Assembly: GCA_963841565.1 (NCBI GenBank)
Contig: CAWJCY010000005.1
Coordinates: 1-44,630, forward strand
Direction of reading: 5' to 3'
DNA from: an uncultured Nitrososphaerales archaeon
GTDB lineage: Archaea > Thermoproteota > Nitrososphaeria > Nitrososphaerales > Nitrososphaeraceae
Length of the DNA stretch: 44,630 bases
Below, in pieces: positions 11,292 to 26,921 of this stretch. The notes beneath the pieces are model-generated. The model made no database searches and was not told the DNA's origin. It was given only the letters and a program-made list of their open reading frames with translations. Each line of letters begins with the position of its first letter. Within the stretch, counting starts at the first letter, position 1. The position numbers and the translations under genes are program-made.

Positions 11292-12629
11292 ATGGGTACC
11301 CAAATGAGTTCTGCTAGGCAGGGTCAAGCCACAGAAGAAATGATCCGTGTTTCTAAAGATGAAGGGATCAACCTAGAGACCCTAAAACACGGGGTGGCTA
11401 AAGGGAGTATAATTATTCCTAGAAATCTCGCCAGGAAGCAAGAGAATGTTCGGGTTGTTGGAATAGGAAATGGGTTAAAAACTAAAGTGAATGTGAATAT
11501 TGGAACTTCAACTTTATATCAAAATCTCGATGAGGAAATAACCAAAGCAAGAATTGCTGTAGATCACGGTGCAGATACCATAATGGATTTGTCAGATGGG
11601 GGCGACCTTGATCTAATAAGAGAAAAATTATTGGAAGAGGCACTGATAACTTTTGGCTCAGTACCGATTTATCAAGCATATGCATATGGCGTTCAGAAAT
11701 ACAAAAACCCACTTAATATTACCGAGGATGATTTTTTGAAGGCATTTGAAAAGAACGCTAAAGACGGAGTTGATTATACCACAATTCATTCTGGTATAAC
11801 TAAGGAGCTCGCAAAACGAGTATTGGAAGTCAGAAGACATGGCGGGATAGTTTCTAAAGGAGGTACCATAACAGCAGCATGGATGCTAAAGTATGAAAAA
11901 GAAAACCCTTATTTCAAACACTTCGACTATCTCTGTGAAATTGCCAGAGAGTATGATGTTACGTTCAGCTTGGGAGATGCATTACGTCCTGGATCGATAC
12001 TGGATTCCCATGATGAATTGCAGGTTGAAGAGATGTTGAATGTATCAAGACTTACAAAGAAAGCTCATGAACAAGATATTCAAGTTATGGTAGAAGGTCC
12101 GGGTCACGTTCCGCTGAATGAAGTTGCTGCAAATGTACGACTCGCGAAATCGCTCATAGGGAATGTTCCATATTATGTTCTAGGTCCTTTAGTAACAGAC
12201 ATAGCAGCCGGGTACGACCACATTGCTAGCGCGATTGGAGCCGCTGTTTCGGCCGCTGAAGGTGTTGACCTCCTTTGCTATTTGACACCCGCAGAGCACT
12301 TGGGACTGCCTACAGCCGACGAAGTAAAGGAAGGTCTAATAGCGTATAGAATTGCCGCACATGCAGGGGATCTTGTCAGGCTGCGTGAAAAAGTGATCAA
12401 TTGGGATAAAGAGATAACTGAGGCACGACGAACTCTGAATTGGGAAAAGCAGATATCACTGTCTATAGATCCTGAGCAGGCTGCCAAGATACATTACCGA
12501 CGGCAAGGCCAGCTAGATGGCAACAATGTGCCTTGTACTATGTGCGGAGGAGCTTGTGTATACATAATGTTACCACAACAACGTAGGAATGAAGAAGCAA
12601 TTGAGAAAAAAACTGGCAATGATGACTAG
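11292..12629 (+). CDS. thiC: phosphomethylpyrimidine synthase
   Basis: TKVNVNIGTS, GADTIMDLS, SLGDALRPGS, VMVEGPGHVP, GYDHIASAIG, LLCYLTPAEHL and C-terminal CTMCGGAC Fe-S motif. Confidence 0.97.
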   Translation: MGTQMSSARQGQATEEMIRVSKDEGINLETLKHGVAKGSIIIPRNLARKQENVRVVGIGNGLKTKVNVNIGTSTLYQNLDEEITKARIAVDHGADTIMDLSDGGDLDLIREKLLEEALITFGSVPIYQAYAYGVQKYKNPLNITEDDFLKAFEKNAKDGVDYTTIHSGITKELAKRVLEVRRHGGIVSKGGTITAAWMLKYEKENPYFKHFDYLCEIAREYDVTFSLGDALRPGSILDSHDELQVEEMLNVSRLTKKAHEQDIQVMVEGPGHVPLNEVAANVRLAKSLIGNVPYYVLGPLVTDIAAGYDHIASAIGAAVSAAEGVDLLCYLTPAEHLGLPTADEVKEGLIAYRIAAHAGDLVRLREKVINWDKEITEARRTLNWEKQISLSIDPEQAAKIHYRRQGQLDGNNVPCTMCGGACVYIMLPQQRRNEEAIEKKTGNDD

Positions 12630-14411: not shown

Positions 14412-15581
14412 TCATTCGTGGGGTAGAAAAAATTGGATTACTATACTTACGATATACATTGATAACAACATCATACCAGTCTTTAATCCTATTTCTTTTT
14501 TGAACATTGGTATTAAAGCTATTATCGTGACCACAGTCACAAGTACTACTTGAAATGCGAGTACTGGAGTCAATTCAATCACAGTAAAAAATCCTGCATG
14601 ATACATTGCTCCAAAAACCGCTACTGCGAGAAGCAACGTATTGTTTAGTATTTTAGATCCTAACACGTTGGCTATTGCAATGGATGCACCTAATGCGCCC
14701 TTTCTTGCAAGTATCATCAATGATATTTTCTCAGGCATTTCTCCGGCAATAGGGCTAATTACTACTGCAAGAATTATCGCAGAAACTCCTATATCAACTG
14801 AAAATCCTTCAAGTGCATGGATGAAAGGGCCTGCTCCTACTACGATTCCGATTGTTCCTGCCACAAATACCAATACGGATCTTAGTGTACGTCTTCTTAA
14901 TCTCGCAGTGTCGCTACTATTTCCGCTAAAGTCTTGCTTTTCCCTAATCGAATCCTTCGTACTACTTTTTAAAACCTCCTCTTGCTGCTTACTAATCTCA
15001 TTCGACATTCCTCTAGCTCTGACCAATGTATCATTTCTTTCTGATCTCATTTCAAACAGGGCTACTATAAGATACGCAATGAAGAATCCGGTGAAGATCA
15101 AACCATCCAAGAAATTATATCCATCAATGAACAGTAGTGCACTCACAATAGCAGTAACAAGCAGAAAAATCTTGTCTAGTTTGAAAGTACTGACATTGAT
15201 TCCCTTCAATGGAGATTTGGATATCCGGGTTGTTGCAATGATTAGCATAAGAGATAACCCCAGCGTCATCATCAATAGATTGCTTCCTAATCCTGCTCCT
15301 ATGGCTACTCCGTAAGATCCGGCTGCGGCAGCATAAATAACGATTGCAATTTCAGGGAGGGTCGTTGCCACACTTAAGATCGTCCTTCCTACAAACTTAG
15401 CACCGTATCTAGCTGAAAGGTGTTCGGCCCCATAGGAGAGAGCCCAGCTTGCAACGATTAATTCTGCTAACCAAATGACCATCGAAGTTAGATTTTCGGA
15501 ACTCAAAATAAGGCTCGCTATCTGATCTAAGTGATAATACCAATGTAATATATTGATTTCTTGTTCCATATGATCAAGCAT
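14412..15581 (-). CDS. sodium:calcium exchanger (CaCA) family membrane protein
   Basis: Two alpha-repeat-like motifs (SVATTLPE...GAGLGSNL; PIAGEMPE...ANVLGSKILN) and about 10 TM segments; true start may be 15482. Confidence 0.85.
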   Translation of the reverse strand: MLDHMEQEINILHWYYHLDQIASLILSSENLTSMVIWLAELIVASWALSYGAEHLSARYGAKFVGRTILSVATTLPEIAIVIYAAAAGSYGVAIGAGLGSNLLMMTLGLSLMLIIATTRISKSPLKGINVSTFKLDKIFLLVTAIVSALLFIDGYNFLDGLIFTGFFIAYLIVALFEMRSERNDTLVRARGMSNEISKQQEEVLKSSTKDSIREKQDFSGNSSDTARLRRRTLRSVLVFVAGTIGIVVGAGPFIHALEGFSVDIGVSAIILAVVISPIAGEMPEKISLMILARKGALGASIAIANVLGSKILNNTLLLAVAVFGAMYHAGFFTVIELTPVLAFQVVLVTVVTIIALIPMFKKEIGLKTGMMLLSMYIVSIVIQFFLPHE

Positions 15582-15968: not shown

Positions 15969-17138
15969 GTGCCATATATGCCAAATAAGGTTTGCGTCCT
16001 CGGTGCAGGTAGTACGAAATATGGTAAGCTAAATGAAAGTGTTGTAGAATTAGCGTTGGATGCCTCAAAGGATGCTATCACTTCTGCCGGTATAACCCCA
16101 AAGGAGATACAGTCAGGCTACATTTCAAATGTCTTTGGAGTTTCTGACAAGCAGGTTCATATGGCACCTGTTATAATGAGCAACTTAGGCATTCCTTATA
16201 CTCCAGGCCTAACCATAGAATCAGCATGTGGATCTGGCTCTGTAATGTTACGAGAAGCATATGCTAATGTTGCTGCAGGTTTTTATGACTGTATTTTGGC
16301 GGTAGGTGTTGAGAAAATCACTCAGGTAGGAACAGTTCAGAGTACTACACTTTTTTCATATTGTTCAGATTTCTTTTATGAGGGAGGAAATGGAGCTTCT
16401 TTTCCCGGGCTTTTCGCATCTATCGCGAGGGCTTATCTTACTAGGTACAAAGCAACAGAAGAAGATTTAGCTTATGTGGCGGTCAAGAATCATGAGAATG
16501 GAATACTTAACCCCAAAGCACATGTTCGTAAAATAATAACGATCGAAGATGTGATGCAATCTCCTGTCGTGGCATCTCCGCTAAAACTTTACGATTGTTG
16601 TCCATTCTCCGATGGCGCCTCCGCACTGATTCTTTGTAGCGAAGAATTTGCGAAGAAAAAGGGCAGAAGCTATATAGAAATAATTGGATCAGGCCGTGGT
16701 GCCTCCCCAGCCGCAGTACAATCGCGCGAGGACATTACAACTATACCCAGTACCGTAAATGCTGCCCGACAGGCGTATGAAATGGCAAAGATAACACCCA
16801 AAGATGTAGATTTTGCTGAAGTACATGATTGCTTTACCATTGCCGAAGTCATAGATACTGAGGACTTAGGCTTTTTTAGGAAAGGCGAAGCTGCAGAAGC
16901 CATAAGGTCTGGCGCCACAAAGAGGACAGGAGAGATTCCAATTAATCCATCAGGAGGATTAAAATCTAAAGGTCATCCGATCGGAGCTACAGGGATTGGT
17001 CAAGTTGTTGAAGTATTTGAACAATTTACAGGGAAGGCAGGAGAGCGAACAATACACGACGCAGAAATCGCAATTACCCATAACTTTGGTGCCACTGGGG
17101 CAAGTGCGACAGTACACGTTTTCAAGAAAGTTAAATGA
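15969..17138 (+). CDS. acetyl-CoA C-acyltransferase (archaeal thiolase)
   Basis: ESACGSG (catalytic Cys), VAVKNH, DCCPFSDGA, AEVHDCF, NPSGGL.SKGHPIGATG. Confidence 0.93.
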   Translation: MPYMPNKVCVLGAGSTKYGKLNESVVELALDASKDAITSAGITPKEIQSGYISNVFGVSDKQVHMAPVIMSNLGIPYTPGLTIESACGSGSVMLREAYANVAAGFYDCILAVGVEKITQVGTVQSTTLFSYCSDFFYEGGNGASFPGLFASIARAYLTRYKATEEDLAYVAVKNHENGILNPKAHVRKIITIEDVMQSPVVASPLKLYDCCPFSDGASALILCSEEFAKKKGRSYIEIIGSGRGASPAAVQSREDITTIPSTVNAARQAYEMAKITPKDVDFAEVHDCFTIAEVIDTEDLGFFRKGEAAEAIRSGATKRTGEIPINPSGGLKSKGHPIGATGIGQVVEVFEQFTGKAGERTIHDAEIAITHNFGATGASATVHVFKKVK

Positions 17139-17144
17139 ACTAAT

Positions 17145-17543
17145 TTGTCTGACTCTAGGGATCCAAATCAAGTCATGAACAGGAGAAACAGGTTCATAGA
17201 AGCAGCTAGTCGTGGAAAGATTCTGGCAAATAAATGTGCAAAATGCAATTATTCCACTCTTGAAACAGCATATTTCTGTGAAAAGTGCTCGTCCGATGTA
17301 TTTACTACAGAGGAATACGACGGGCTGGGCAATGTGGTTACATTCACAATTCAATCTGTTGCCCCAGAGGGATTTACTGATGCGGGCTTATATGCATGGG
17401 TCGTTTTTAAAGTTGATGGCGCCCCTTTCAATGTGTCTGGATTTCTTAAGGATACTCATGCGCCATCAGATTTACCAATCGGTTCAAAAGTGCAAGTGAC
17501 TGGTTTTGACGAGAAACATGGGTTGCTTTTAAAGCGTGTTTGA
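17145..17543 (+). CDS. DUF35 Zn-ribbon/OB-fold thiolase partner
   Basis: CAKC...CEKC followed by OB-fold-like strands; 6 bp downstream of the thiolase. Confidence 0.88.
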   Translation: MSDSRDPNQVMNRRNRFIEAASRGKILANKCAKCNYSTLETAYFCEKCSSDVFTTEEYDGLGNVVTFTIQSVAPEGFTDAGLYAWVVFKVDGAPFNVSGFLKDTHAPSDLPIGSKVQVTGFDEKHGLLLKRV

Positions 17544-17720: not shown

Positions 17721-18362
17721 ATGTATTTGCGACAGATGGAACAGCATCGTCAGCGATTCAGTGGAGAGATTACAAACGCAAGTGCAGTTGTAAATACCCA
17801 ACTTTCTAAACTGACTATGCTGGAGAAAAAATTCTCGAACATGGATGATAAATTCAGCAATGAAATTTCCAATCTTATGAAGAATGGTAACAACGCGCGG
17901 GCAAAAGCACTTGCAAACGAACTCGTGAACATTCGACGAATAAAGAATATTACTCGAAACATGAACCTTACACTAGAGATGCTAGTAATCAGGTTTAGCA
18001 CTCTCAAAGATTTTGGGATGATTATGGATACTATTGAACCTACAGTAGATATGATAAAGAATATTCAGCTTGATATATCAGCCATCGTGCCTGCCGCAAA
18101 CGGAGTACTCTCCGAAATGTCTGAGATTTCATCTGAGGTTCTAGATGAAAGCACGAAGATAGACGGAAACTATGCAATCCCAACTAGTGTAGATTCCGAT
18201 GCACTGGATATCCTAACAGAAATCGAGTCAGTAATGGAACAGGATGCTAAAACAAAATTACCTGAAATACCTACAGAGATAAACGAAACAATAATCCAAT
18301 CAACCGATAATATTAAGATGAGGAGCTTATTGAAGGAAAGTCGGGTACTTGTCGAAACTTGA
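17721..18362 (+). CDS. ESCRT-III / Snf7 family (CdvB-like paralog)
   Basis: Long helical hairpin, RAKALANELVNIRRIK, LE....RFSTLKDFG, acidic C-terminus DALDILTE...KLPEIP. Confidence 0.8.
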   Translation: MYLRQMEQHRQRFSGEITNASAVVNTQLSKLTMLEKKFSNMDDKFSNEISNLMKNGNNARAKALANELVNIRRIKNITRNMNLTLEMLVIRFSTLKDFGMIMDTIEPTVDMIKNIQLDISAIVPAANGVLSEMSEISSEVLDESTKIDGNYAIPTSVDSDALDILTEIESVMEQDAKTKLPEIPTEINETIIQSTDNIKMRSLLKESRVLVET

Positions 18363-18456
18363 ATAAATAGCAGAAGCTAAGGTAGGCCATATTATATCGA
18401 TAGTAAAATATAATTTACAAAGTAGTTTTAATTGTCTAGGCTGAATATCGGGTGCA

Positions 18457-20574
18457 ATGGAACAGTTGAGTCATGATTATTCATTTCAAACAGAGAACAA
18501 AAGGTATGGGATTCTCGAATCTGCCTCAAAACGAGTGCGGATGATCTTCTCTGTTATGGCCAGTCCTAACAGAATTGATATACTTAGAATATTAAATTCA
18601 AAGGGGCCACTTACCTACTCTGAATTGAAATCTCTTGCCGGGTTCAAATCGAAAAAGGAATCTGGAAAATTTGCCTATCATTTAAGGAAACTGCTTAGGC
18701 AGTCGTTAGTTGCTTTGAATAAAGGAGAACGAAGATATACAATAACTAACTTGGGGAAATTAGTCTTGAGCCTTGCAAGACAAATTGAAGAAAGGTCAAT
18801 AGTTGAAAGTGGCAAAATGTATGTTAGGACAAGCCATAATTCGATTGAGGAGTTTAATTCTCACAAGATAATCCAATCTATCGTTAGGGAGGCTGGAATG
18901 CCTTTAGAGCAAGCGCAGAAAATCACGGAGGAAGTGGAGAACAAGATTTACAAGTTCCAGGCTGCCTATCTTACATCTTCTCTGGTTCGTGAAACAGTCA
19001 ATTCCGTGCTTATAGAGCATGGCTTTGAAGAGTATCGGAGTAGAATGTCCAGATTGGGCATGCCTAGTTCTGATGTTCTCGATCTGATAAACAATGCGGA
19101 AGGAATTACAAATGGAATAGAGGGAATTATCAATAACGCTTCCATGTCAGTGTTTTCGGAGCACCTATTATTGAATTCTCTACCCAAGGACATTTCAGAT
19201 ATGCATCTAGGTGGCGAGTTAAACATCTCAAATCCTGGGGTATGGGGGATACTTCCTGATGTGGTCTTCCTAAACATCAATGAATTTTCTGAAGGATTAC
19301 AAAAATTAAACGGCAAGTATTTTAACGTATCAAGGGTACGCTTCGATGAAAAGTCCAAGTTTTCGGCAGCATTGCAATTACTTTTGGCTTTGATGAGCAG
19401 GGAGGCATCATCGGAGGTAGTTCTTGAAGGCATCACAGACTTTCTCTTGAATGACACTTTGGATTGTGAGGATATCGCGTCATCTTTTGCAAAGGCTCTT
19501 ATCTCGTCATCTGCTACAAGCTCCTATTCTGAAGGTCTACCTTCCTTTACGATTCTATTGCCTGTAAGTACTCTTGATAAAAAGACATTTGGGGCCTTAC
19601 TTGATGGCTACACAAAGTATACAGACTTAACTCCTTTACCAAGGGTTGGTCTGGCATTAAATTACAATGGAGATTCCAATACGTTGGGAGAAGACTCGCA
19701 GACGATATCATCTGTAGTTAGGTCGGGAGGTAAGATAGTCATCATGCAAAATGGAAAGCGAACGAGTAATGGCATTCGAAAATCATTAGATGGTAAGGAT
19801 ACAGGGAGCGTTGCATCTTTACAGTCGATGTCGATTAATCTTCCTAGACTCGCGTATCAGTCAAACAAAGATGAAACATATTTCAGGGCAAAACTCGCGC
19901 TAACAATAAAACCCGCATTGGAGGCGATGTATATAAGAAAGAAGAATATCCTGAGCACAATCAGAAAGGGGCTATGCCCGGTCATGGGAAGTGCTAATTT
20001 TGAACATTTCGGCACAACTAACATAATTCTCAATCTCACCGGCCTAAAGGAATCAGTATATGATATCTTGGGATATAATCACAATTCTGCCGGAGATGAT
20101 GTCCTGAGAAAAGTACTGAAGACCTCAGGTGATGTAGCTTTAGATCATGGGAGGCAAATGGATAGTGAATCGGTAGGTATCTCGATGATAGATGATGACA
20201 GTAGCATAAGATTTTCAACCTTGGATTCAGAAAAATATGGTAGGACTCTACTATCAACTGGGGCCGAGTCGGCAAAGCACTACTCTCAAGGGATTACTGT
20301 GAACGGAAAGGAACTTTTGTTACAACCTCAAAAAGGATTAGAAGAATGTATTTCCATTGATAGTCTCCTAAGGGGTGGGTTGTCGACGTCAATAGATCTA
20401 ACTGATATTTCGGCTCAGGATGAATTGAATAAGGCAATAGCCATCAGCACTGGACTCACATTCTTCCGGCCATTCGTTCGATCCCTGATCTGTAGAGGGT
20501 GTAGCAGACGCTATGTTGGGTCAGATGTTAAGAAATGCGAGACCTGTGGATCAGTATATTTAAGGACAGGTTGA
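18457..20574 (+). CDS. ArsR-type wHTH + ATP cone + degenerate class III RNR (NrdD-like) fusion
   Basis: N-terminal wHTH (MASPNRIDIL..TYSELK..FAYHLRKL..YTITNLG); ATP cone (VRTS..IEEFNSHKI..YLTSSLVRE); NrdD-like LPKDISDMHLGG, SINLPRLA and C-terminal CxxC-x11-CxxC. Confidence 0.85.
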   Translation: MEQLSHDYSFQTENKRYGILESASKRVRMIFSVMASPNRIDILRILNSKGPLTYSELKSLAGFKSKKESGKFAYHLRKLLRQSLVALNKGERRYTITNLGKLVLSLARQIEERSIVESGKMYVRTSHNSIEEFNSHKIIQSIVREAGMPLEQAQKITEEVENKIYKFQAAYLTSSLVRETVNSVLIEHGFEEYRSRMSRLGMPSSDVLDLINNAEGITNGIEGIINNASMSVFSEHLLLNSLPKDISDMHLGGELNISNPGVWGILPDVVFLNINEFSEGLQKLNGKYFNVSRVRFDEKSKFSAALQLLLALMSREASSEVVLEGITDFLLNDTLDCEDIASSFAKALISSSATSSYSEGLPSFTILLPVSTLDKKTFGALLDGYTKYTDLTPLPRVGLALNYNGDSNTLGEDSQTISSVVRSGGKIVIMQNGKRTSNGIRKSLDGKDTGSVASLQSMSINLPRLAYQSNKDETYFRAKLALTIKPALEAMYIRKKNILSTIRKGLCPVMGSANFEHFGTTNIILNLTGLKESVYDILGYNHNSAGDDVLRKVLKTSGDVALDHGRQMDSESVGISMIDDDSSIRFSTLDSEKYGRTLLSTGAESAKHYSQGITVNGKELLLQPQKGLEECISIDSLLRGGLSTSIDLTDISAQDELNKAIAISTGLTFFRPFVRSLICRGCSRRYVGSDVKKCETCGSVYLRTG

Positions 20575-21025: not shown

Positions 21026-21589
21026 TTATGGGATTGATCTGCTGTACAGCTTTCCTTCTAATGCTAGTTTGTACATCTCTGCTACGTACGGGTTCTTGGC
21101 TGGTGTTTCAGCTCCAAGTTCAACCAATCGTGCATATACTCTTACGACATATGCTAGAGCGCCCATGAAAGCTACAACAACTCCCATGTTAAACATCCAG
21201 TGGTTTGGAACTGAAAATATTTCTTCTACAAACCAAAAGTGCCACAGCTCATTGATACCTATAGTAAACATGGTTGCCAAATATCCAAGAATGGTCATCT
21301 TTAGACCGGTATTCATGGAGTTGTTTGGTCCTCTTAGAATAGGTACTTTTCTGTCATACATTGCTACAAATCCCCAACCTAGAGGAAGTGCAATGAAGTG
21401 ACTGTATAGCCACCAATGAGCTGGTGTGAATGCACTATCTCTGATAGCAGTTTGATGCAATGATCCATCTACAAAGTTATCTACTTCTACTGATGCTGCA
21501 ATTGAACCTAACATTATAACCATTATGTATATTTTCTTTAGTCTCTGTATCTCTACTTCTTTTGGAATCAGTGCGGGCATCTGTGCCAT
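21026..21589 (-). CDS. amoC: ammonia monooxygenase subunit C
   Basis: MAQMPALIPKEVEIQRLKK start (ATG at 21589); EVDNFVDGSLHQTAIRDSAFTPAHWW metal-site motif; NELWHFWFVEEIFSVPNHW. Confidence 0.97.
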   Translation of the reverse strand: MAQMPALIPKEVEIQRLKKIYIMVIMLGSIAASVEVDNFVDGSLHQTAIRDSAFTPAHWWLYSHFIALPLGWGFVAMYDRKVPILRGPNNSMNTGLKMTILGYLATMFTIGINELWHFWFVEEIFSVPNHWMFNMGVVVAFMGALAYVVRVYARLVELGAETPAKNPYVAEMYKLALEGKLYSRSIP

Positions 21590-21905
21590 TATCTTCTTCA
21601 ATAATGAAGATGCAACAGATCTATATTAAGTTGCGAGTATCAGAATCTGATTCTTTCATCAATGTTTGATAGTGAATTGGATGATATCTTATGGAATGTA
21701 TATATAATTATGTTATTTATATGATTTATCATACCTGAATGTAGATAAGCATTAGTGATTAGCACAAGTGATTAATGTAATGTGTGGCTATTTTTGGATA
21801 CCTTAAACACTAATTTGTGTTCGAAGAGCGAAGGGCCCATCCATGGCACAATTTTTCAGCAAGCTAATATTTTTAAAGCAAAGGAAAACTAATGTATAGA
21901 TTGGA

Positions 21906-24629
21906 ATGGCGGGGGTTACCGAATTTAATTCTAAAGAAAATTTGATTTCACAGATAAGGAAACGGGATGCAAGAATAGTTTCTTTTGTTCATACGAAGAT
22001 CTCCAATGCAATCTATAAGGCGTTGGTTGCAACTAGGAAACCTGATTACGAGTTAGCTGAGAACTTGGCTAACAAAGTTCTCCAGAAAATGGTTGATCAT
22101 GGCTATGGAGCGTCGGAAAAGGAAGCAATTCCGAGTGTGGAAGACGTTCAGGATATGGTAGAATCAATACTCATCGAAGAAGGTTTGTCCGAGACAGCAA
22201 AGGCCTACATCCTCTACAGACACGAACGAAGAAAAATTAGAGATGAAAAAATGAAAATCCTGAACAAGAAAGATCTAGATGAAATCGATAAATCATTCAG
22301 TGTTAATTCACTAAGAGTCTTAGCGTCTCGATATCTGTTAAGAGATGATAGCAACGAGATAATAGAAGGACCACGCCAAATGTTTGAAAGGGTTGCCATT
22401 CTAGCAACTCTGCCTGACCTGGTACACGATTCGAGTATATTTGACATCGAATCTAAACATAGTAATTACACAGATGAAGCAGAGAAGTACTACGATAAAA
22501 TCGATGATTTCCATCTCAAGCTTAAGATTGGTGAATTCTATCTCAATAAGTACCATTTTGAATCTCTTATTCGTCTTTACATAGATCTCGCTAAAGACAG
22601 ACACATGAAATGTAGTTTCAAAGACTTGCTAAGGCTAATCGCTGAAGGAAAGATGTCTGCTTACGAAAGCAGAATTCGCGAATACTATAATTTAATGGTA
22701 TCAAAGGACTTTTTGCCTAATACACCAACTTTAATGAACGCGGGCGCGAGATTAGGACAACTTTCAGCCTGCTTTGTCCTCGACATGCCAGATGATATGA
22801 ACCAGATCATGAAGTCGTCTACCGATGCGGCGATGATCTTCAAATCAGGAGGCGGAGTAGGCATCAATTATTCTGATTTGAGGCCAGAGGGTGATATCGT
22901 AGCATCCACATCTGGAGTAGCATCTGGACCTTCATCTTTCATGAGAATAATTGACACAATCACGGATGTTGTGAAACAGGGAGGAAAGAGACGTGGTGCA
23001 AATATGGGTATTCTGGAAGCATGGCATCCGGATATTGAAAAGTTCGTGACTGCAAAGACAAAACCGGGAGTATTTGAAAACTTTAATGTGAGCGTTGGTA
23101 TCTCTAATGATTTCTGGAAATCTGTTATTGATAAACAGAACCATAAGTACATGTTAAGAAATCCGAGAACCCAAGAGCCCATTAAAAACATTGATTCGCA
23201 ACAGCTATTGGATCTGATAGCATTTAGTGCATGGAAGAGTGCAGAACCAGGTGTAATTTTCTTTGATAATATCAACAAATATAATCCATGTATGGAAGCC
23301 AAGGGTGGACCATTGCGTGCAACAAATCCTTGTGGAGAACAGTCTCTTTATCCATATGAATCATGCAATTTGGGTTCGATAAATCTGGCAAATTTTGTTA
23401 AGAGGAAAGCTGATGGAATGTACGAATTTGATTGGCAACGTTATGAACAAGCGGTACGATTGTCAACCAGATTGCTAGATAATGTAATTGATGCTAACAA
23501 GTATCCTGTAGACGAGATCGATAAAAATACTAAACTTACGCGTAGAATCGGTCTCGGTATTATGGGCATAGCCGACCTACTATTCTTGTTAAGAATACCA
23601 TACATATCTAAAGAAGGGTATGAGTTCATGAACAAGTTAGCGGAGGCGATCTCATATTACAGCATGGAGGAGAGCGTTGCTCTGGCTAAAGTACGAGGGC
23701 CATTTCCACTGTTTTCAAGAACTGATTATGTCAAAGGTAAGATCCCGGTAGCCGGATACTATGAAATACCGAAGGAGAATCATTCATTTGACTGGGACTC
23801 ATTAATCATGAAAATCCGAAAATACGGTATAAGAAACTCATGGACAACAACGATTGCACCTACTGGAACGTTATCTATGATAGCAGATACTTCTAACGGT
23901 ATTGAACCCATTTTCGCTTTAGTTTTCGAAAAGAGAGTAACAGTTGGCAGATTTTTCTATACAAACAGGGTTTTCGAAAATGTTCTAATGGCGAGCGGTC
24001 TGTACGACGACGAAATACTTACAAGAATTGCAAATAACTACGGATCTGTACGAGATATGAATGAGATTCCTCAGTGGATGCAGAAACTTTTCGTAACAGC
24101 AATTGATATTCACTGGACAGATCATCTTATGGCTCAGGCTGTGTGGCAGAAATGGATTAGTAATGCTATCGCAAAGACTATTAATATGCCTGGAGATACG
24201 ACCGCCGATGATGTGAAATCTGCATACTTGCTTGCCCATGAATTAGGATTAAAAGGTGTTACAGTTTATCGGGATGGGTCAAGACACGAGCAGGTTCTGC
24301 ACATAACAGGTGATACTGGAAAGGAAAAAAGGTTTATGGTAAATCCGAGTGCCTACGTAGCAGATTTTATTCGAGACAATATCAATGAACCATTCGTAAG
24401 GGAACAGATAGCACAAATATACCAATACACTCAGAATTTTGAGGAACCCATGACACCTCCTCGTTATGAAGAGAATCAACAGATTACTTCTGTAAAAAAA
24501 TCAAGTCTCCAATCTTCAGTTATGGAGAATTATGACAATATGTGTCCTTCCTGCAAATCAAAACTAATAGTTACAGAAGGATGTAATATGTGCATTGAGT
24601 GTGGGTTTAGTAGCTGCGGCTCGGGATGA
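21906..24629 (+). CDS. nrdJ: adenosylcobalamin-dependent (class II) ribonucleotide reductase with N-terminal ATP cone
   Basis: IRKRD ATP cone, PNTPTLMNAG, LSACFV, GGKRRGANM, ATNPCGEQ, CNLGSIN, TIAPTGT, KGVTVYRDGSR, C-terminal Cys cluster. Confidence 0.95.
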   Translation: MAGVTEFNSKENLISQIRKRDARIVSFVHTKISNAIYKALVATRKPDYELAENLANKVLQKMVDHGYGASEKEAIPSVEDVQDMVESILIEEGLSETAKAYILYRHERRKIRDEKMKILNKKDLDEIDKSFSVNSLRVLASRYLLRDDSNEIIEGPRQMFERVAILATLPDLVHDSSIFDIESKHSNYTDEAEKYYDKIDDFHLKLKIGEFYLNKYHFESLIRLYIDLAKDRHMKCSFKDLLRLIAEGKMSAYESRIREYYNLMVSKDFLPNTPTLMNAGARLGQLSACFVLDMPDDMNQIMKSSTDAAMIFKSGGGVGINYSDLRPEGDIVASTSGVASGPSSFMRIIDTITDVVKQGGKRRGANMGILEAWHPDIEKFVTAKTKPGVFENFNVSVGISNDFWKSVIDKQNHKYMLRNPRTQEPIKNIDSQQLLDLIAFSAWKSAEPGVIFFDNINKYNPCMEAKGGPLRATNPCGEQSLYPYESCNLGSINLANFVKRKADGMYEFDWQRYEQAVRLSTRLLDNVIDANKYPVDEIDKNTKLTRRIGLGIMGIADLLFLLRIPYISKEGYEFMNKLAEAISYYSMEESVALAKVRGPFPLFSRTDYVKGKIPVAGYYEIPKENHSFDWDSLIMKIRKYGIRNSWTTTIAPTGTLSMIADTSNGIEPIFALVFEKRVTVGRFFYTNRVFENVLMASGLYDDEILTRIANNYGSVRDMNEIPQWMQKLFVTAIDIHWTDHLMAQAVWQKWISNAIAKTINMPGDTTADDVKSAYLLAHELGLKGVTVYRDGSRHEQVLHITGDTGKEKRFMVNPSAYVADFIRDNINEPFVREQIAQIYQYTQNFEEPMTPPRYEENQQITSVKKSSLQSSVMENYDNMCPSCKSKLIVTEGCNMCIECGFSSCGSG

Positions 24630-24743: not shown

Positions 24744-26921
24744 TCACCTATAGTGAGGCATAACTACCCTATCGCCGGGCTTCATTTCTCTCTGCGTCTT
24801 GATCTTTTTAATAGCCTCTTCAAACTGCTTCATTGAAACCAAAGCCTCAGATGTATGTTTAGCAGCTTCCTCTGGAGTATTGTATTTTGCAAGATACTCT
24901 TGTAATACCACTGAGATTGCGGTATTAGCAACGGCTGACATGTCAGCTCCACTAAAGCCATCAGTCAGATCCGCTATCCTGCCTAGGTCTATGTCATTAC
25001 TTACAGGTTTGCCCTTGATGTTAATCTCCAGGATTCTCTCCCTTGTATTTCTGTCAGGATTAGATACTAGCACTATCTTATCAAATCGTCCCGGTCTCAG
25101 CAATGCGGTGTCGATCATGTCTACCCTATTGGTTGCAGCAATTATCACAACTCCTTGCATTTCTTGTATACCGTCCATCTCCGTGAGTAATTGTGACATC
25201 ATTCGCTCTGTGCTTGCATGGACCCCCTCCATTCCTCTGATAGGTGCAATAGAGTCTATCTCGTCAAAAAACACCACACAAGGTGAAGCCTGTCTAGCTT
25301 TCCTAAATATCTCGCGGATTCCTTTTTCTGATTCTCCAACCCACTTGCTAAGTAGTTCAGGACCTTTAACACTAATGAAATTCGCTTCAGATTCAGTAGC
25401 TACAGCCTTTGCCAATAGTGTTTTTCCGGTGCCTGAAGGACCGTATAGTAGTATTCCTTTAGGAATATTATGCTTGAGCTCTTTGTACAAGGCTGGATAT
25501 TTTAATGGCCATTCCACTGCCTCTTGTAATTCCCTCTTAACGTTGTCTAGTCCACCAATATCTTCCCATTTGACATCGGGAGGTTCTACGTAGACCTCTC
25601 TCATGGCAGATGGGGTTATCTCCCTTGTAGCATAGTCAAAATCATTCATGTTTATCACGAGCTTATCCAGTGTTTCGGGAGCAAGTTTTTCATCCTCCAT
25701 GTTGAGTTCAGGTAGAAGTCTTCTCAAACACTTCATAGCTGCTTCTTTACACAAATATTCAAGATCTGCACCTACAAACCCATGAGTTACACCAGCAATC
25801 TTATCTTGATCTACATCAGTATCCAGAGGCATATTACGGGCATGAATCTGTAATATCTCCAGTCTACCTCGTTTGTCAGGAACTTTGATCTCAATTTCTC
25901 TGTCAAATCTACCTGGTCTGCGTAATGCTGGATCTAAGGCATTTGGCCTATTGGTTGCAGCAATGACTATAACCTTTCCTCTAGCTTCTAAACCATCCAT
26001 CAATGAAAGTAATTGAGAGACAACTCGTCGTTCCACCTCACCAGTTACCTCTTCTCTCTTTGGTGCGATTGAATCTATCTCATCAATGAATATTATCGAA
26101 GGTGACTTCTCTCTTGCCTCCTTAAAGATTTCCCTTAAACGTGCTTCAGATTCTCCATAGAATTTACTCATTATTTCAGGTCCTGATATACTGATAAAAT
26201 GTGAGTTACTTTCATTGGCAACAGCTTTTGCCAACAGTGTCTTACCAGTTCCAGGGGGTCCAAATAGAAGCACACCTTTAGGAGCTTCAATTCCTAATTT
26301 CTCAAATATCTCTGGATGTCTTAAAGGAAGCTCAATCATCTCACGTACTTTTTGAATCTCGTCCTTCAAGCCACCTATGTCTTCGTAGGCGACGATATGC
26401 ATACCTCTGTCCGCTGATGCTTGGCCAGCCGTCGTTATGTTAAATGCCGTCTTTTGAGTGACCAACACTGCATCACTACCGGCTGGTGTAACCCCGATAA
26501 CCTGGAAAGTAAGTCTTCCACCAAAATATGGAACCATGACATTATCGCCTTTGATCAGAGGTACACTTTCAAGTGCATCTGCAAGATACCTTTCATCAAT
26601 AGGTGGAATTGCTTCAAGCGGTGCTACTATTACCTTTTCAGCTGGAACTGCCTTTATCTTTCTTACAACTACTGTATCACCTATAGCAACACCTGCATTA
26701 TTACGTACAAGACCATCAACACGAATTATTCCCTTACCTTCATCAGAGGGGTACAGCGGCAAACACTTTGCCACCGTTCGACGTTTGCCTCTAATCTCGA
26801 TAACATCTCCTGTAGAAGCGGTGAGAGAATCCATCGAGTCATAATCAATACGAGCTACTCCTCTGCCAACGTCTCTAGTATAAGCTTCAAGTACTTTAAG
26901 ACTCGAATTAGTGTCTCCCAT
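24744..26921 (-). CDS. cdc48: CDC48/VCP family AAA+ ATPase
   Basis: N-domain plus two AAA modules ([15 protein letters not shown]; [15 protein letters not shown]) with [12 protein letters not shown] and LLRPGRFD. Confidence 0.96.

Follow-up and report, generated by a model that had tools for sequence, protein, structure and literature searches.

In bacteria, transcription of ribonucleotide reductase (RNR) genes is controlled by NrdR through a nucleotide-dependent change of oligomer, as set out in the available parts of PMC9110341 and PMC12176259, and the available part of PMC9110341 describes NrdR as rare in archaea. A second described system close to the present locus is the class III RNR, NrdD, for which the available part of PMC11226230 gives the roles of the NxN flap, the HxHD motif, Cys171, Cys416, and Gly711 (PcNrdD). 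Here, we analyzed a stretch of 44,630 nucleotides (the window) from an uncultured Nitrososphaerales archaeon (GenBank assembly GCA_963841565.1, contig CAWJCY010000005.1, positions 1 to 44,630 of the forward strand), in which an intact open reading frame (ORF) at 18457..20574 on the plus strand encodes a 705-aa protein composed of a winged helix-turn-helix (wHTH), an ATP-cone, an NrdD-fold barrel, and a four-Cys Zn ribbon. Judged by alignment with genuine NrdDs, this protein is a catalytically dead NrdD derivative without any of the class III RNR catalytic determinants tested, and we consider it, on balance, somewhat probable that it acts as a nucleotide-responsive regulator of RNR genes and is thereby a functional analogue of NrdR.

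Comparing the dead-NrdD protein with NrdR, both have a DNA-binding module as well as an ATP-cone, and both are encoded by genes associated with RNR genes; control of RNR transcription by a nucleotide-dependent oligomer change is proposed here for the archaeal protein by analogy. However, the DNA-binding module of NrdR is a Zn ribbon, whereas that of the dead-NrdD protein is a wHTH; the protein further has a dead RNR barrel of 450 residues and, at its C terminus, a Zn ribbon derived from NrdD. Moreover, its ATP-cone stems from the archaeal NrdD cone (the VRTS variant) and not from NrdR, and no NrdR-box-like shared operator was found in the promoter comparison. The protein is an analogue of NrdR and, outside the cone, no homologue of it. 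NrdR itself (TIGR00244) exceeded its cut-off in 1 of the 121 genomes searched in the class and gave no match in the genome of the window.

The dead-NrdD protein shares with NrdD the fold, the ATP-cone, the NLPR motif, the four-Cys Zn ribbon, and a predicted dimer surface, and its closest relatives are the genuine archaeal NrdDs encoded next to family members in anaerobic Thermoproteota. However, it has an extra N-terminal wHTH, scores far under the NrdD equivalog cut-off, and lacks the radical cysteine, the first-strand cysteine, the NxN flap, the HxHD motif, and the glycyl-radical domain, and no NrdG was found in the genome. The N-terminal 80 residues are likewise related to the ArsR/SmtB regulators, whereas the fusion of the wHTH to an ATP-cone and an RNR barrel sets the protein apart from them, and a metal-sensing role is not implied. 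No description of the family was found in the literature searched, including PMC3019208, PMC2795772, and bioRxiv 10.1101/2022.04.23.489257, the supplements of which could hold such sequences.

Domain architecture and fold

An earlier note on this DNA, made from the letters of the stretch, had recognized an ArsR-like wHTH, an ATP cone, and an NrdD-like body with a four-Cys Zn site, and the analysis confirms this observation. The wHTH (residues ∼30–110; 18544..18786, plus strand) matches Pfam HTH_20 at residues 34 to 86 with 32.5 bits (cut-off 27) and DUF7347, also above cut-off, at residues 30 to 104, whereas the stricter metalloregulator subfamily test of NCBIfam HTH_metalloreg failed (23 bits versus a cut-off of 55). 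The ATP-cone, which begins with the variant VRTS, occupies residues 121 to 194 (18817..19038, plus strand; 42.6 bits, cut-off 25.8). It is followed by the NrdD-fold alpha/beta barrel without catalytic residues (residues ∼215–668; 19099..20460, plus strand), to which Pfam NRDD, through the C-terminal half of the model, gave 44 bits at residues 433 to 699 (cut-off 26.2). The NCBIfam NrdD equivalog TIGR02487 returned 39.3 bits, far under its cut-off of 326.35.

For the family, 65 diverse members were aligned (alignment A1), and this alignment is the basis of the family profile, of the AlphaFold model, and of the counts out of 65 given below. The recognition helix of the wHTH, GKFAYHLRKL, is near-invariant, with Gly70, Phe72, Tyr74, His75, and Leu76 invariant or kept in at least 90% of the members, and the family profile weakly matches the structure of the ArsR/SmtB-family protein HlyU (3jth, E = 0.003). 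In the barrel, the NLPR motif common to solved NrdDs is retained at Asn461 to Arg464 (19837..19848, plus strand); Asn461 is invariant in 65 of 65 members, and Pro463 and Arg464 are conserved in at least 90%. All four cysteines of the Zn ribbon (Cys679, Cys682, Cys694, and Cys697; 20491..20547, plus strand) are present in 64 of 65.

A single-sequence search of the PDB with the window protein gave chance matches only, and the family profile was required to reach solved structures. Over the whole barrel, the A1 profile matched the NrdDs of Streptococcus thermophilus (E = 1.3e-40), Prevotella copri (6e-38), Thermotoga maritima (2e-34), and phage T4 (1e-32), the matched structures including 9d3x, 8p23, 4coi, and 1h78. 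The AlphaFold model (predicted local distance difference test [pLDDT] 89.3, predicted template modeling score [pTM] 0.83), a structure prediction that the earlier note had suggested as a check, points the same way: its top Foldseek matches in the PDB are exclusively class III RNRs, with target-normalized template modeling scores of 0.55 to 0.65. Because both the profile and the model match solved class III RNRs, the body of the protein can be assigned to the NrdD barrel. The ORF at 18457..20574 is not a chance ORF.

Loss of the catalytic residues

Three groups were aligned: 10 members of the short type (Nitrososphaeria type), 16 of the long type (other Thermoproteota), and 8 genuine NrdDs whose genes adjoin those of long-type members; 3 of the 8 neighbors were scanned and gave 520 to 527 bits with TIGR02487. 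At the finger-loop tip, the window protein reads Ser437-Asn-Gly-Ile-Arg441 (19765..19779, plus strand), and Gly439 and Ile440 align on both cysteines of the SQCCR or QCCA finger loops of the genuine archaeal NrdDs. The earlier note had read SNGIR at this position with the Ile codon at 19774 to 19776, and both are confirmed. Within A1, 60 of 65 members have no cysteine in the finger-loop columns and 5 have a stray one, in no case combined with RxxGY. Similarly, the first-strand cysteine, found in RPFCQEHD of the genuine enzymes, is absent from the corresponding LPDVVFLN of the window protein, and this cysteine is missing in 60 of 65 members, with a stray one in 5.

The substrate-binding elements have been lost as well. 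The NxN substrate flap is deleted in 26 of 26 pseudo rows, whereas it is present (as ENANLQ) in 8 of 8 genuine rows. The HxHD triphosphate motif, part of IHIHD in genuine NrdDs, corresponds to LNISN in the window protein (residues 255–259), in which Asn256-Ile257-Ser258-Asn259 (19222..19233, plus strand) takes its place, and HxHD occurs in 0 of 65 members. Whereas genuine NrdDs carry the glycyl-radical motif as RITGY or RVTGY, the window protein stops 8 residues past the last Zn cysteine, in keeping with the earlier claim that an R-(V/I)-x-G-Y loop is missing from its C terminus. RxxGY is found in 0 of 65 A1 members, and of the 91 representatives that are 600 aa or longer, a single one (P0155) fits it, at the extreme C terminus and without a finger-loop cysteine. 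In the long-type members, the loop is vestigial, for example FSRSSAKYLPL, and the glycine is replaced by Ala, Ser, or Thr. Aligning homologs and scoring these residues against the allosteric ones was a check proposed in the earlier note, and its outcome is that the catalytic Cys and Gly are lost, whereas the ATP-cone retains 54.7% mean identity over the 65 rows versus 23.9% for the barrel.

A likeness of the spacing from Ile440 to Asn461 to that from Cys290 to Asn311 of the T4 enzyme was dropped, because Asn461 is the Asn of NLPR and not the strand-six Asn. In one locus (L100:3177–7428), the two neighboring paralogues have both degenerated; the one that lacks a wHTH has no finger-loop cysteines either, reads RSIAFY at the glycyl-radical position, and scores 260 bits with TIGR02487, below cut-off.

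The NrdG activase, which the earlier note had not seen in the window, is not found over cut-off in the whole genome (88% complete) either: the best TIGR02491 and TIGR02495 scores were 21 and 38 bits, both under cut-off, and TIGR02826 gave no match. Across the order, TIGR02491 was over cut-off in 0 of 81 genomes. The family is nevertheless named as an enzyme in databases, where its members appear as 'ribonucleoside-triphosphate reductase (formate)', 'anaerobic ribonucleoside-triphosphate reductase', or 'DNA-binding transcriptional ArsR family regulator', the misleading RNR and ArsR labels that had been foreseen. These names, together with the retained barrel fold, NLPR motif, and Zn ribbon, would be in line with a protein that is still an enzyme, whether as a class III RNR whose radical chemistry is unconventional or through a new nonradical activity of the old barrel on nucleotides. 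We regard this as very improbable, because every catalytic and substrate-binding determinant tested is gone, no NrdG activase was found, the barrel is the least conserved part of the protein, and the hosts live aerobically and carry an intact nrdJ.

Distribution, conservation, and origin

The gene is near-universal in Nitrososphaeria: it was found in 180 of 201 genomes of the class, in 158 of the 160 high-quality ones, and in all sampled genomes of the order to which the window belongs. One family (f7) mostly lacks the gene, which occurs in 1 of its 14 genomes, whereas nrdJ is present in all 14. Among 1.84 billion cluster representatives, 937 relatives were detected at E ≤ 0.001. Named members of the family come from Nitrososphaeraceae, Nitrosopumilaceae, Bathyarchaeota, and Thermoprotei bins. 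The A1 profile has full-length matches in many further families of the phylum, although its tally of 263 of 301 genomes includes genuine NrdDs and hence does not count the wHTH family.

The domains differ in how strongly they are constrained. Mean pairwise identity over all 65 rows of A1 is 41.8% for the wHTH, 54.7% for the ATP-cone, and 23.9% for the barrel, and within the short type it is 67.1%, 58.5%, and 28.0%, respectively. Among the 8 genuine NrdD neighbors, by comparison, the ATP-cone has 55.7% and the barrel 64.4%. When the pseudo family was set against the genuine enzymes, the pseudo ATP-cone stood at 59 to 65% identity and the barrel at 30 to 34%. Conservation of the sensor and DNA-binding modules is about double that of the barrel that once was catalytic, whereas in the genuine enzymes the barrel ranks above the cone. 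The gene is kept by selection. A decaying relic without function would account for the missing catalytic residues; this explanation is hardly credible, as the full-length frame is intact in nearly all Nitrososphaeria searched, the wHTH and the ATP-cone are strongly conserved, and so is the promoter, and the conservation data already contradict it.

A quick maximum-likelihood tree was built from 35 rows, E. coli NrdD being the only outgroup. In it, the genuine archaeal NrdDs (8 rows; Shimodaira–Hasegawa-like approximate likelihood-ratio test [SH-aLRT] 99) are separate from the wHTH forms, 26 in number, whose support (SH-aLRT 91) is not strong. Members of the short Nitrososphaeria type form a clade (SH-aLRT 100) that arises on a long stem among the wHTH forms. 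The genuine NrdDs and the wHTH forms have the VRTS start of the cone in common, which is present in 6 of the 8 genuine rows and most of the pseudo rows, and with TIGR02487, a long-type copy (L095) scores 304 bits, whereas the window protein scores 39 bits. From the tree and the alignments, a single duplication of an archaeal nrdD may have been followed by fusion to an ArsR-type wHTH and loss of the radical chemistry and the substrate site, with further decay in the aerobic lineage. Such an origin by duplication and then decay fits the tree topology, the common VRTS start, and the falling TIGR02487 scores.

Genomic neighborhood

Downstream of the dead-NrdD gene, on the same strand, lies nrdJ (21906..24629), an intact class II (B12-dependent) RNR gene that encodes its own ATP-cone and is presumed here to be the regulated gene. 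It matches TIGR02504 with 752.9 bits (cut-off 399.95), Pfam Ribonuc_red_lgC with 505 bits, and ATP-cone with 65.7 bits, and it begins 1331 bp past the end of the dead-NrdD gene, as the earlier note had stated in its figure of 1.3 kb for an intact class II nrdJ. A look at synteny with nrdJ had also been advised there. Among the 134 Nitrososphaeria genomes that list both genes, the dead-NrdD gene immediately precedes nrdJ on the same strand in 122, with a median gap of 233 bp; in 4 further genomes the two are convergent and in 1 divergent, each within 1.5 kb. The tandem spans several families, although the genomes are kin, so that the count does not amount to a statistical test, and the 122 include one unpublished genome (G132). 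At the level of contigs, 59 of 80 loci show this arrangement, 13 break off within 600 bp past the gene, and 1 (L017) has an insertion of amoC.

Of the 122 tandems, the one in the window has the widest gap, 1334 bp when measured by match coordinates. This unusual spacing of 1.3 kb arises because an amoC copy has been inserted between the two genes (21026..21601, minus strand; 191 aa, Pfam AmoC 51.4 bits). The insertion is common to the two closest relatives with sufficient downstream sequence (L016 and L017) and does not occur in the other Nitrososphaeraceae loci.

Outside the ammonia-oxidizing archaea (AOA), 20 loci were fetched, 7 picked for two adjacent matches and 13 for a strong full-length match only. 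A wHTH form is located directly upstream of a genuine nrdD on the same strand in 8 of these 20, namely in 6 of the 7 biased picks and 2 of the 13 unbiased ones. The nrdD neighbors have a SQCCR or QCCA finger loop and RITGY or RVTGY, and the three that were scanned have 520 to 527 bits with TIGR02487. One locus (L107) runs into an nrdJ-like ORF at the contig end, and in six (L095, L101, L103, L106, L108, and L110), pyrB and/or pyrI are encoded beside the gene or gene pair. Given the tandem with nrdJ in AOA and the adjacency to nrdD in anaerobic Thermoproteota, the constant partner is therefore the RNR gene of the class that the host uses, amid nucleotide-metabolism genes. The link to RNR is stronger than the earlier note could tell, since the gene normally abuts nrdJ or, in anaerobes, a genuine nrdD.

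Some observations were made on other genes of these loci. In the window, a Snf7/CdvB-like gene of the endosomal sorting complex required for transport III (ESCRT-III) type (17721–18362, plus strand) ends 94 bp upstream of the dead-NrdD gene, and the upstream flank is similar across 48 Nitrososphaeraceae loci, so this neighbor is perhaps conserved too. Farther upstream, a thiolase gene is followed by a small ChsH2-like gene with a zinc ribbon and an oligonucleotide/oligosaccharide-binding fold (15969–17543, plus strand), which we take to be the usual archaeal pair of a thiolase and its partner. Further housekeeping context is provided by ThiC (11292–12629), an Na/Ca exchanger (14412–15581), and CDC48 (24744–26921). 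In two of the non-AOA loci, a small ORF with a CPRC motif, resembling glutaredoxin or an NrdH-type redoxin by eye, lies between the wHTH pseudo-NrdD gene and the genuine nrdD (L102:3733–4130 and L104:5230–5786).

Putative nucleotide sensor and predicted dimer

The earlier note had proposed an enzyme scaffold repurposed as a nucleotide-sensing transcription factor. Part of this stands, as the protein is a dead NrdD derivative and has a wHTH and an ATP-cone, the family is conserved, and its gene is linked to RNR genes. The proposal can also be refined: with the NxN flap deleted and HxHD lost, the alignments indicate that the former substrate site cannot serve as the sensor. Any sensing must take place via the ATP-cone or perhaps via a remnant of the dimer-interface site. 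The VRTS cone is probably a working cone type, because the genuine neighboring NrdDs carry it.

The homodimer of two copies of residues 215 to 705 was modeled and reached an interaction prediction score from aligned errors (ipSAE) of 0.73 (median of three runs), whereas the best control gave 0.00. The runs agreed in at least 93% of contacts, with a partner pLDDT of at least 83. In calibration, 20 of 30 solved homomers reached the ipSAE mark, as did 1 of 23 proteins solved as single chains, a rough guide because our own alignment was supplied, and since NrdD dimers have already been solved, the pass may reflect likeness to known structures. The predicted interface is of the NrdD type and comprises residues 217 to 233, 283 to 316, 342 to 355, and 388 to 396. 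Within it lies a hairpin, G-K-x-L-x-V-S-R (residues ∼287–294), which is conserved in the AOA-type rows.

A dimer surface of this type could also serve in contacts with the reductase itself. The dead-NrdD protein might be a partner of RNR at the protein level, as a heterodimer with NrdD in anaerobes or in a complex with NrdJ in ammonia oxidizers, modulating activity or allostery, with the wHTH used for protein contacts or as a nucleoid tether. Adjacency to RNR genes is compatible with such a role, as are the closest paralogy to the neighboring NrdD with a common NrdD-type dimer surface in the model and the negative outcome of the operator search described below. However, such a partner would need to have switched from a class III to a class II enzyme, whose dimer arrangements are different, and the near-invariant ArsR-type recognition helix is as expected for the reading of DNA. 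Moreover, nrdJ occurs without the gene in family f7, and an accessory regulator therefore fits better than an obligate subunit. We consider a protein-level partner distinctly unlikely.

Promoters and operator search

Upstream of the dead-NrdD gene, a promoter block TAGTAAAA-N5/6-TTTACAAAGTAGTTTTAAT (18400..18434, plus strand) is near-invariant in 43 unique Nitrososphaeraceae upstream sequences, whereas its flanks vary. It contains TTTTAAT, which resembles a transcription factor B recognition element (BRE) and TATA box and lies ∼24 to 30 nt before the ATG, a position that suggests a leaderless or near-leaderless transcript. The block is single in the genome, scoring 49.9 bits with its position weight matrix (PWM) versus −1.8 at the second-best site, and with up to 3 mismatches it has 1 match in the window versus 0 expected. 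Two other sites in the genome, C3:20838 (minus strand) and C6:79574 (plus strand), share AAAAGCAATTTACAAA and score 17 to 18 bits with the 5′ half of the PWM.

The divergent amoC/nrdJ promoter region (21602..21905, no strand assigned) is, by its sequence and position, the candidate target. A TATA-like TTTTTAAAG is situated at ∼21870 to 21878, and the TATA-like element of nrdJ lies ∼30 to 47 nt before the ATG. As nrdJ carries its own TATA-like element, the dead-NrdD gene and nrdJ probably have separate promoters.

An expectation-maximization (EM) motif search of 36 upstream regions of RNR genes returned essentially BRE/TATA-like promoter motifs; the scores of these motifs above those of 686 control upstream regions are inflated by training on the same set and carry no evidential weight. 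A direct repeat TACA[AG]-N6–8-TACA[AG] precedes genuine nrdD in 4 of the 8 anaerobic loci, three of these 4 being closely related, whereas it is found in 0 of 28 nrdJ and 0 of 28 own-gene upstream regions of ammonia oxidizers. This repeat is a lead only. The TACA[AG] repeat (L096–L099 and L102) was seen just 5′ of a CTAAAAA/TTTAAG promoter-like element, with a background of ∼0.005 per 200 nt.

Discussion

We propose that the former barrel acts as a dimer scaffold that would hold two wHTH domains, while the conserved ATP-cone would read the adenine-nucleotide state (ATP versus dATP). A change in this state would shift the geometry of the oligomer and, with it, DNA binding, and bound to DNA the protein may set, in either direction, the transcription of the neighboring RNR gene, which would be nrdJ in the aerobic ammonia oxidizers and nrdD in their anaerobic relatives. 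In some lineages, pyrB and pyrI are possible further targets.

Several results weigh against a regulator of this kind. The conserved promoter block is absent upstream of nrdJ, and the PWM scan of the genome finds no second site; nrdJ promoters vary between genera; and in a search for a box common to the own-gene and nrdJ promoters, the best 14-mers stayed within the maximum of 20 shuffles in 27 of 28 representative genomes and exceeded it in one. In 7 of the 134 genomes, the gene is not linked to nrdJ, the two lying far apart on one contig in 3 and on different contigs in 4, and among the 80 contig loci, 7 show no nrdJ in the 1.5 kb or more that follows the gene. The neighborhood is suggestive and not proof, and related genomes are not independent observations. 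In the ATP-cone, the canonical Lys-Arg pair (V-x-K-R) of the nucleotide-binding hairpin is replaced by Thr125-Ser126; in an hhalign comparison with the cone of the NrdJ of the window, Thr125-Ser126 fall on Lys19-Arg20, and Arg124 is located one position earlier.

The variant hairpin and the confinement of the conserved promoter block to its own gene would also suit a DNA-binding protein that responds to a signal other than an adenine nucleotide or that controls a wider regulon, extending to pyrimidine synthesis, replication, or the cell cycle, with RNR as one target or none. The pyrB and pyrI neighbors in non-AOA lineages and the CdvB/Snf7-like cell-division gene upstream in the window agree with this as well. 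However, the VRTS cone is also present in genuine NrdDs, where ATP-cones control activity, and an RNR gene is the most consistent neighbor across the phylum, so that we judge a different signal or regulon to be unlikely. The nucleotide-responsive regulator of RNR genes is the interpretation that we favor. A bolder form of it would be an archaeal master switch, a transcription factor with two inherited allosteric sites, the ATP-cone and a remodeled specificity site at the dimer interface, which would read ATP/dATP and the balance of deoxyribonucleoside triphosphates and act on RNR and pyrimidine promoters across Thermoproteota; we grant this a small but real chance. In favor of the second site are the conservation of the G-K-x-L-x-V-S-R hairpin in the AOA-type rows and its place in the predicted dimer interface.

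Thousands of database entries of this kind are labeled as anaerobic reductases and can wrongly imply anaerobic DNA synthesis in aerobic nitrifiers. In evolutionary terms, the family is a case in which the chemistry was apparently lost, the allosteric sensor and the scaffold were kept, and a DNA-binding domain was gained. Whereas the control of RNR expression is well understood in bacteria via NrdR, there is a gap in archaea, and the dead-NrdD protein is a testable candidate for an RNR regulator in the globally important ammonia-oxidizing archaea and in many other Thermoproteota.

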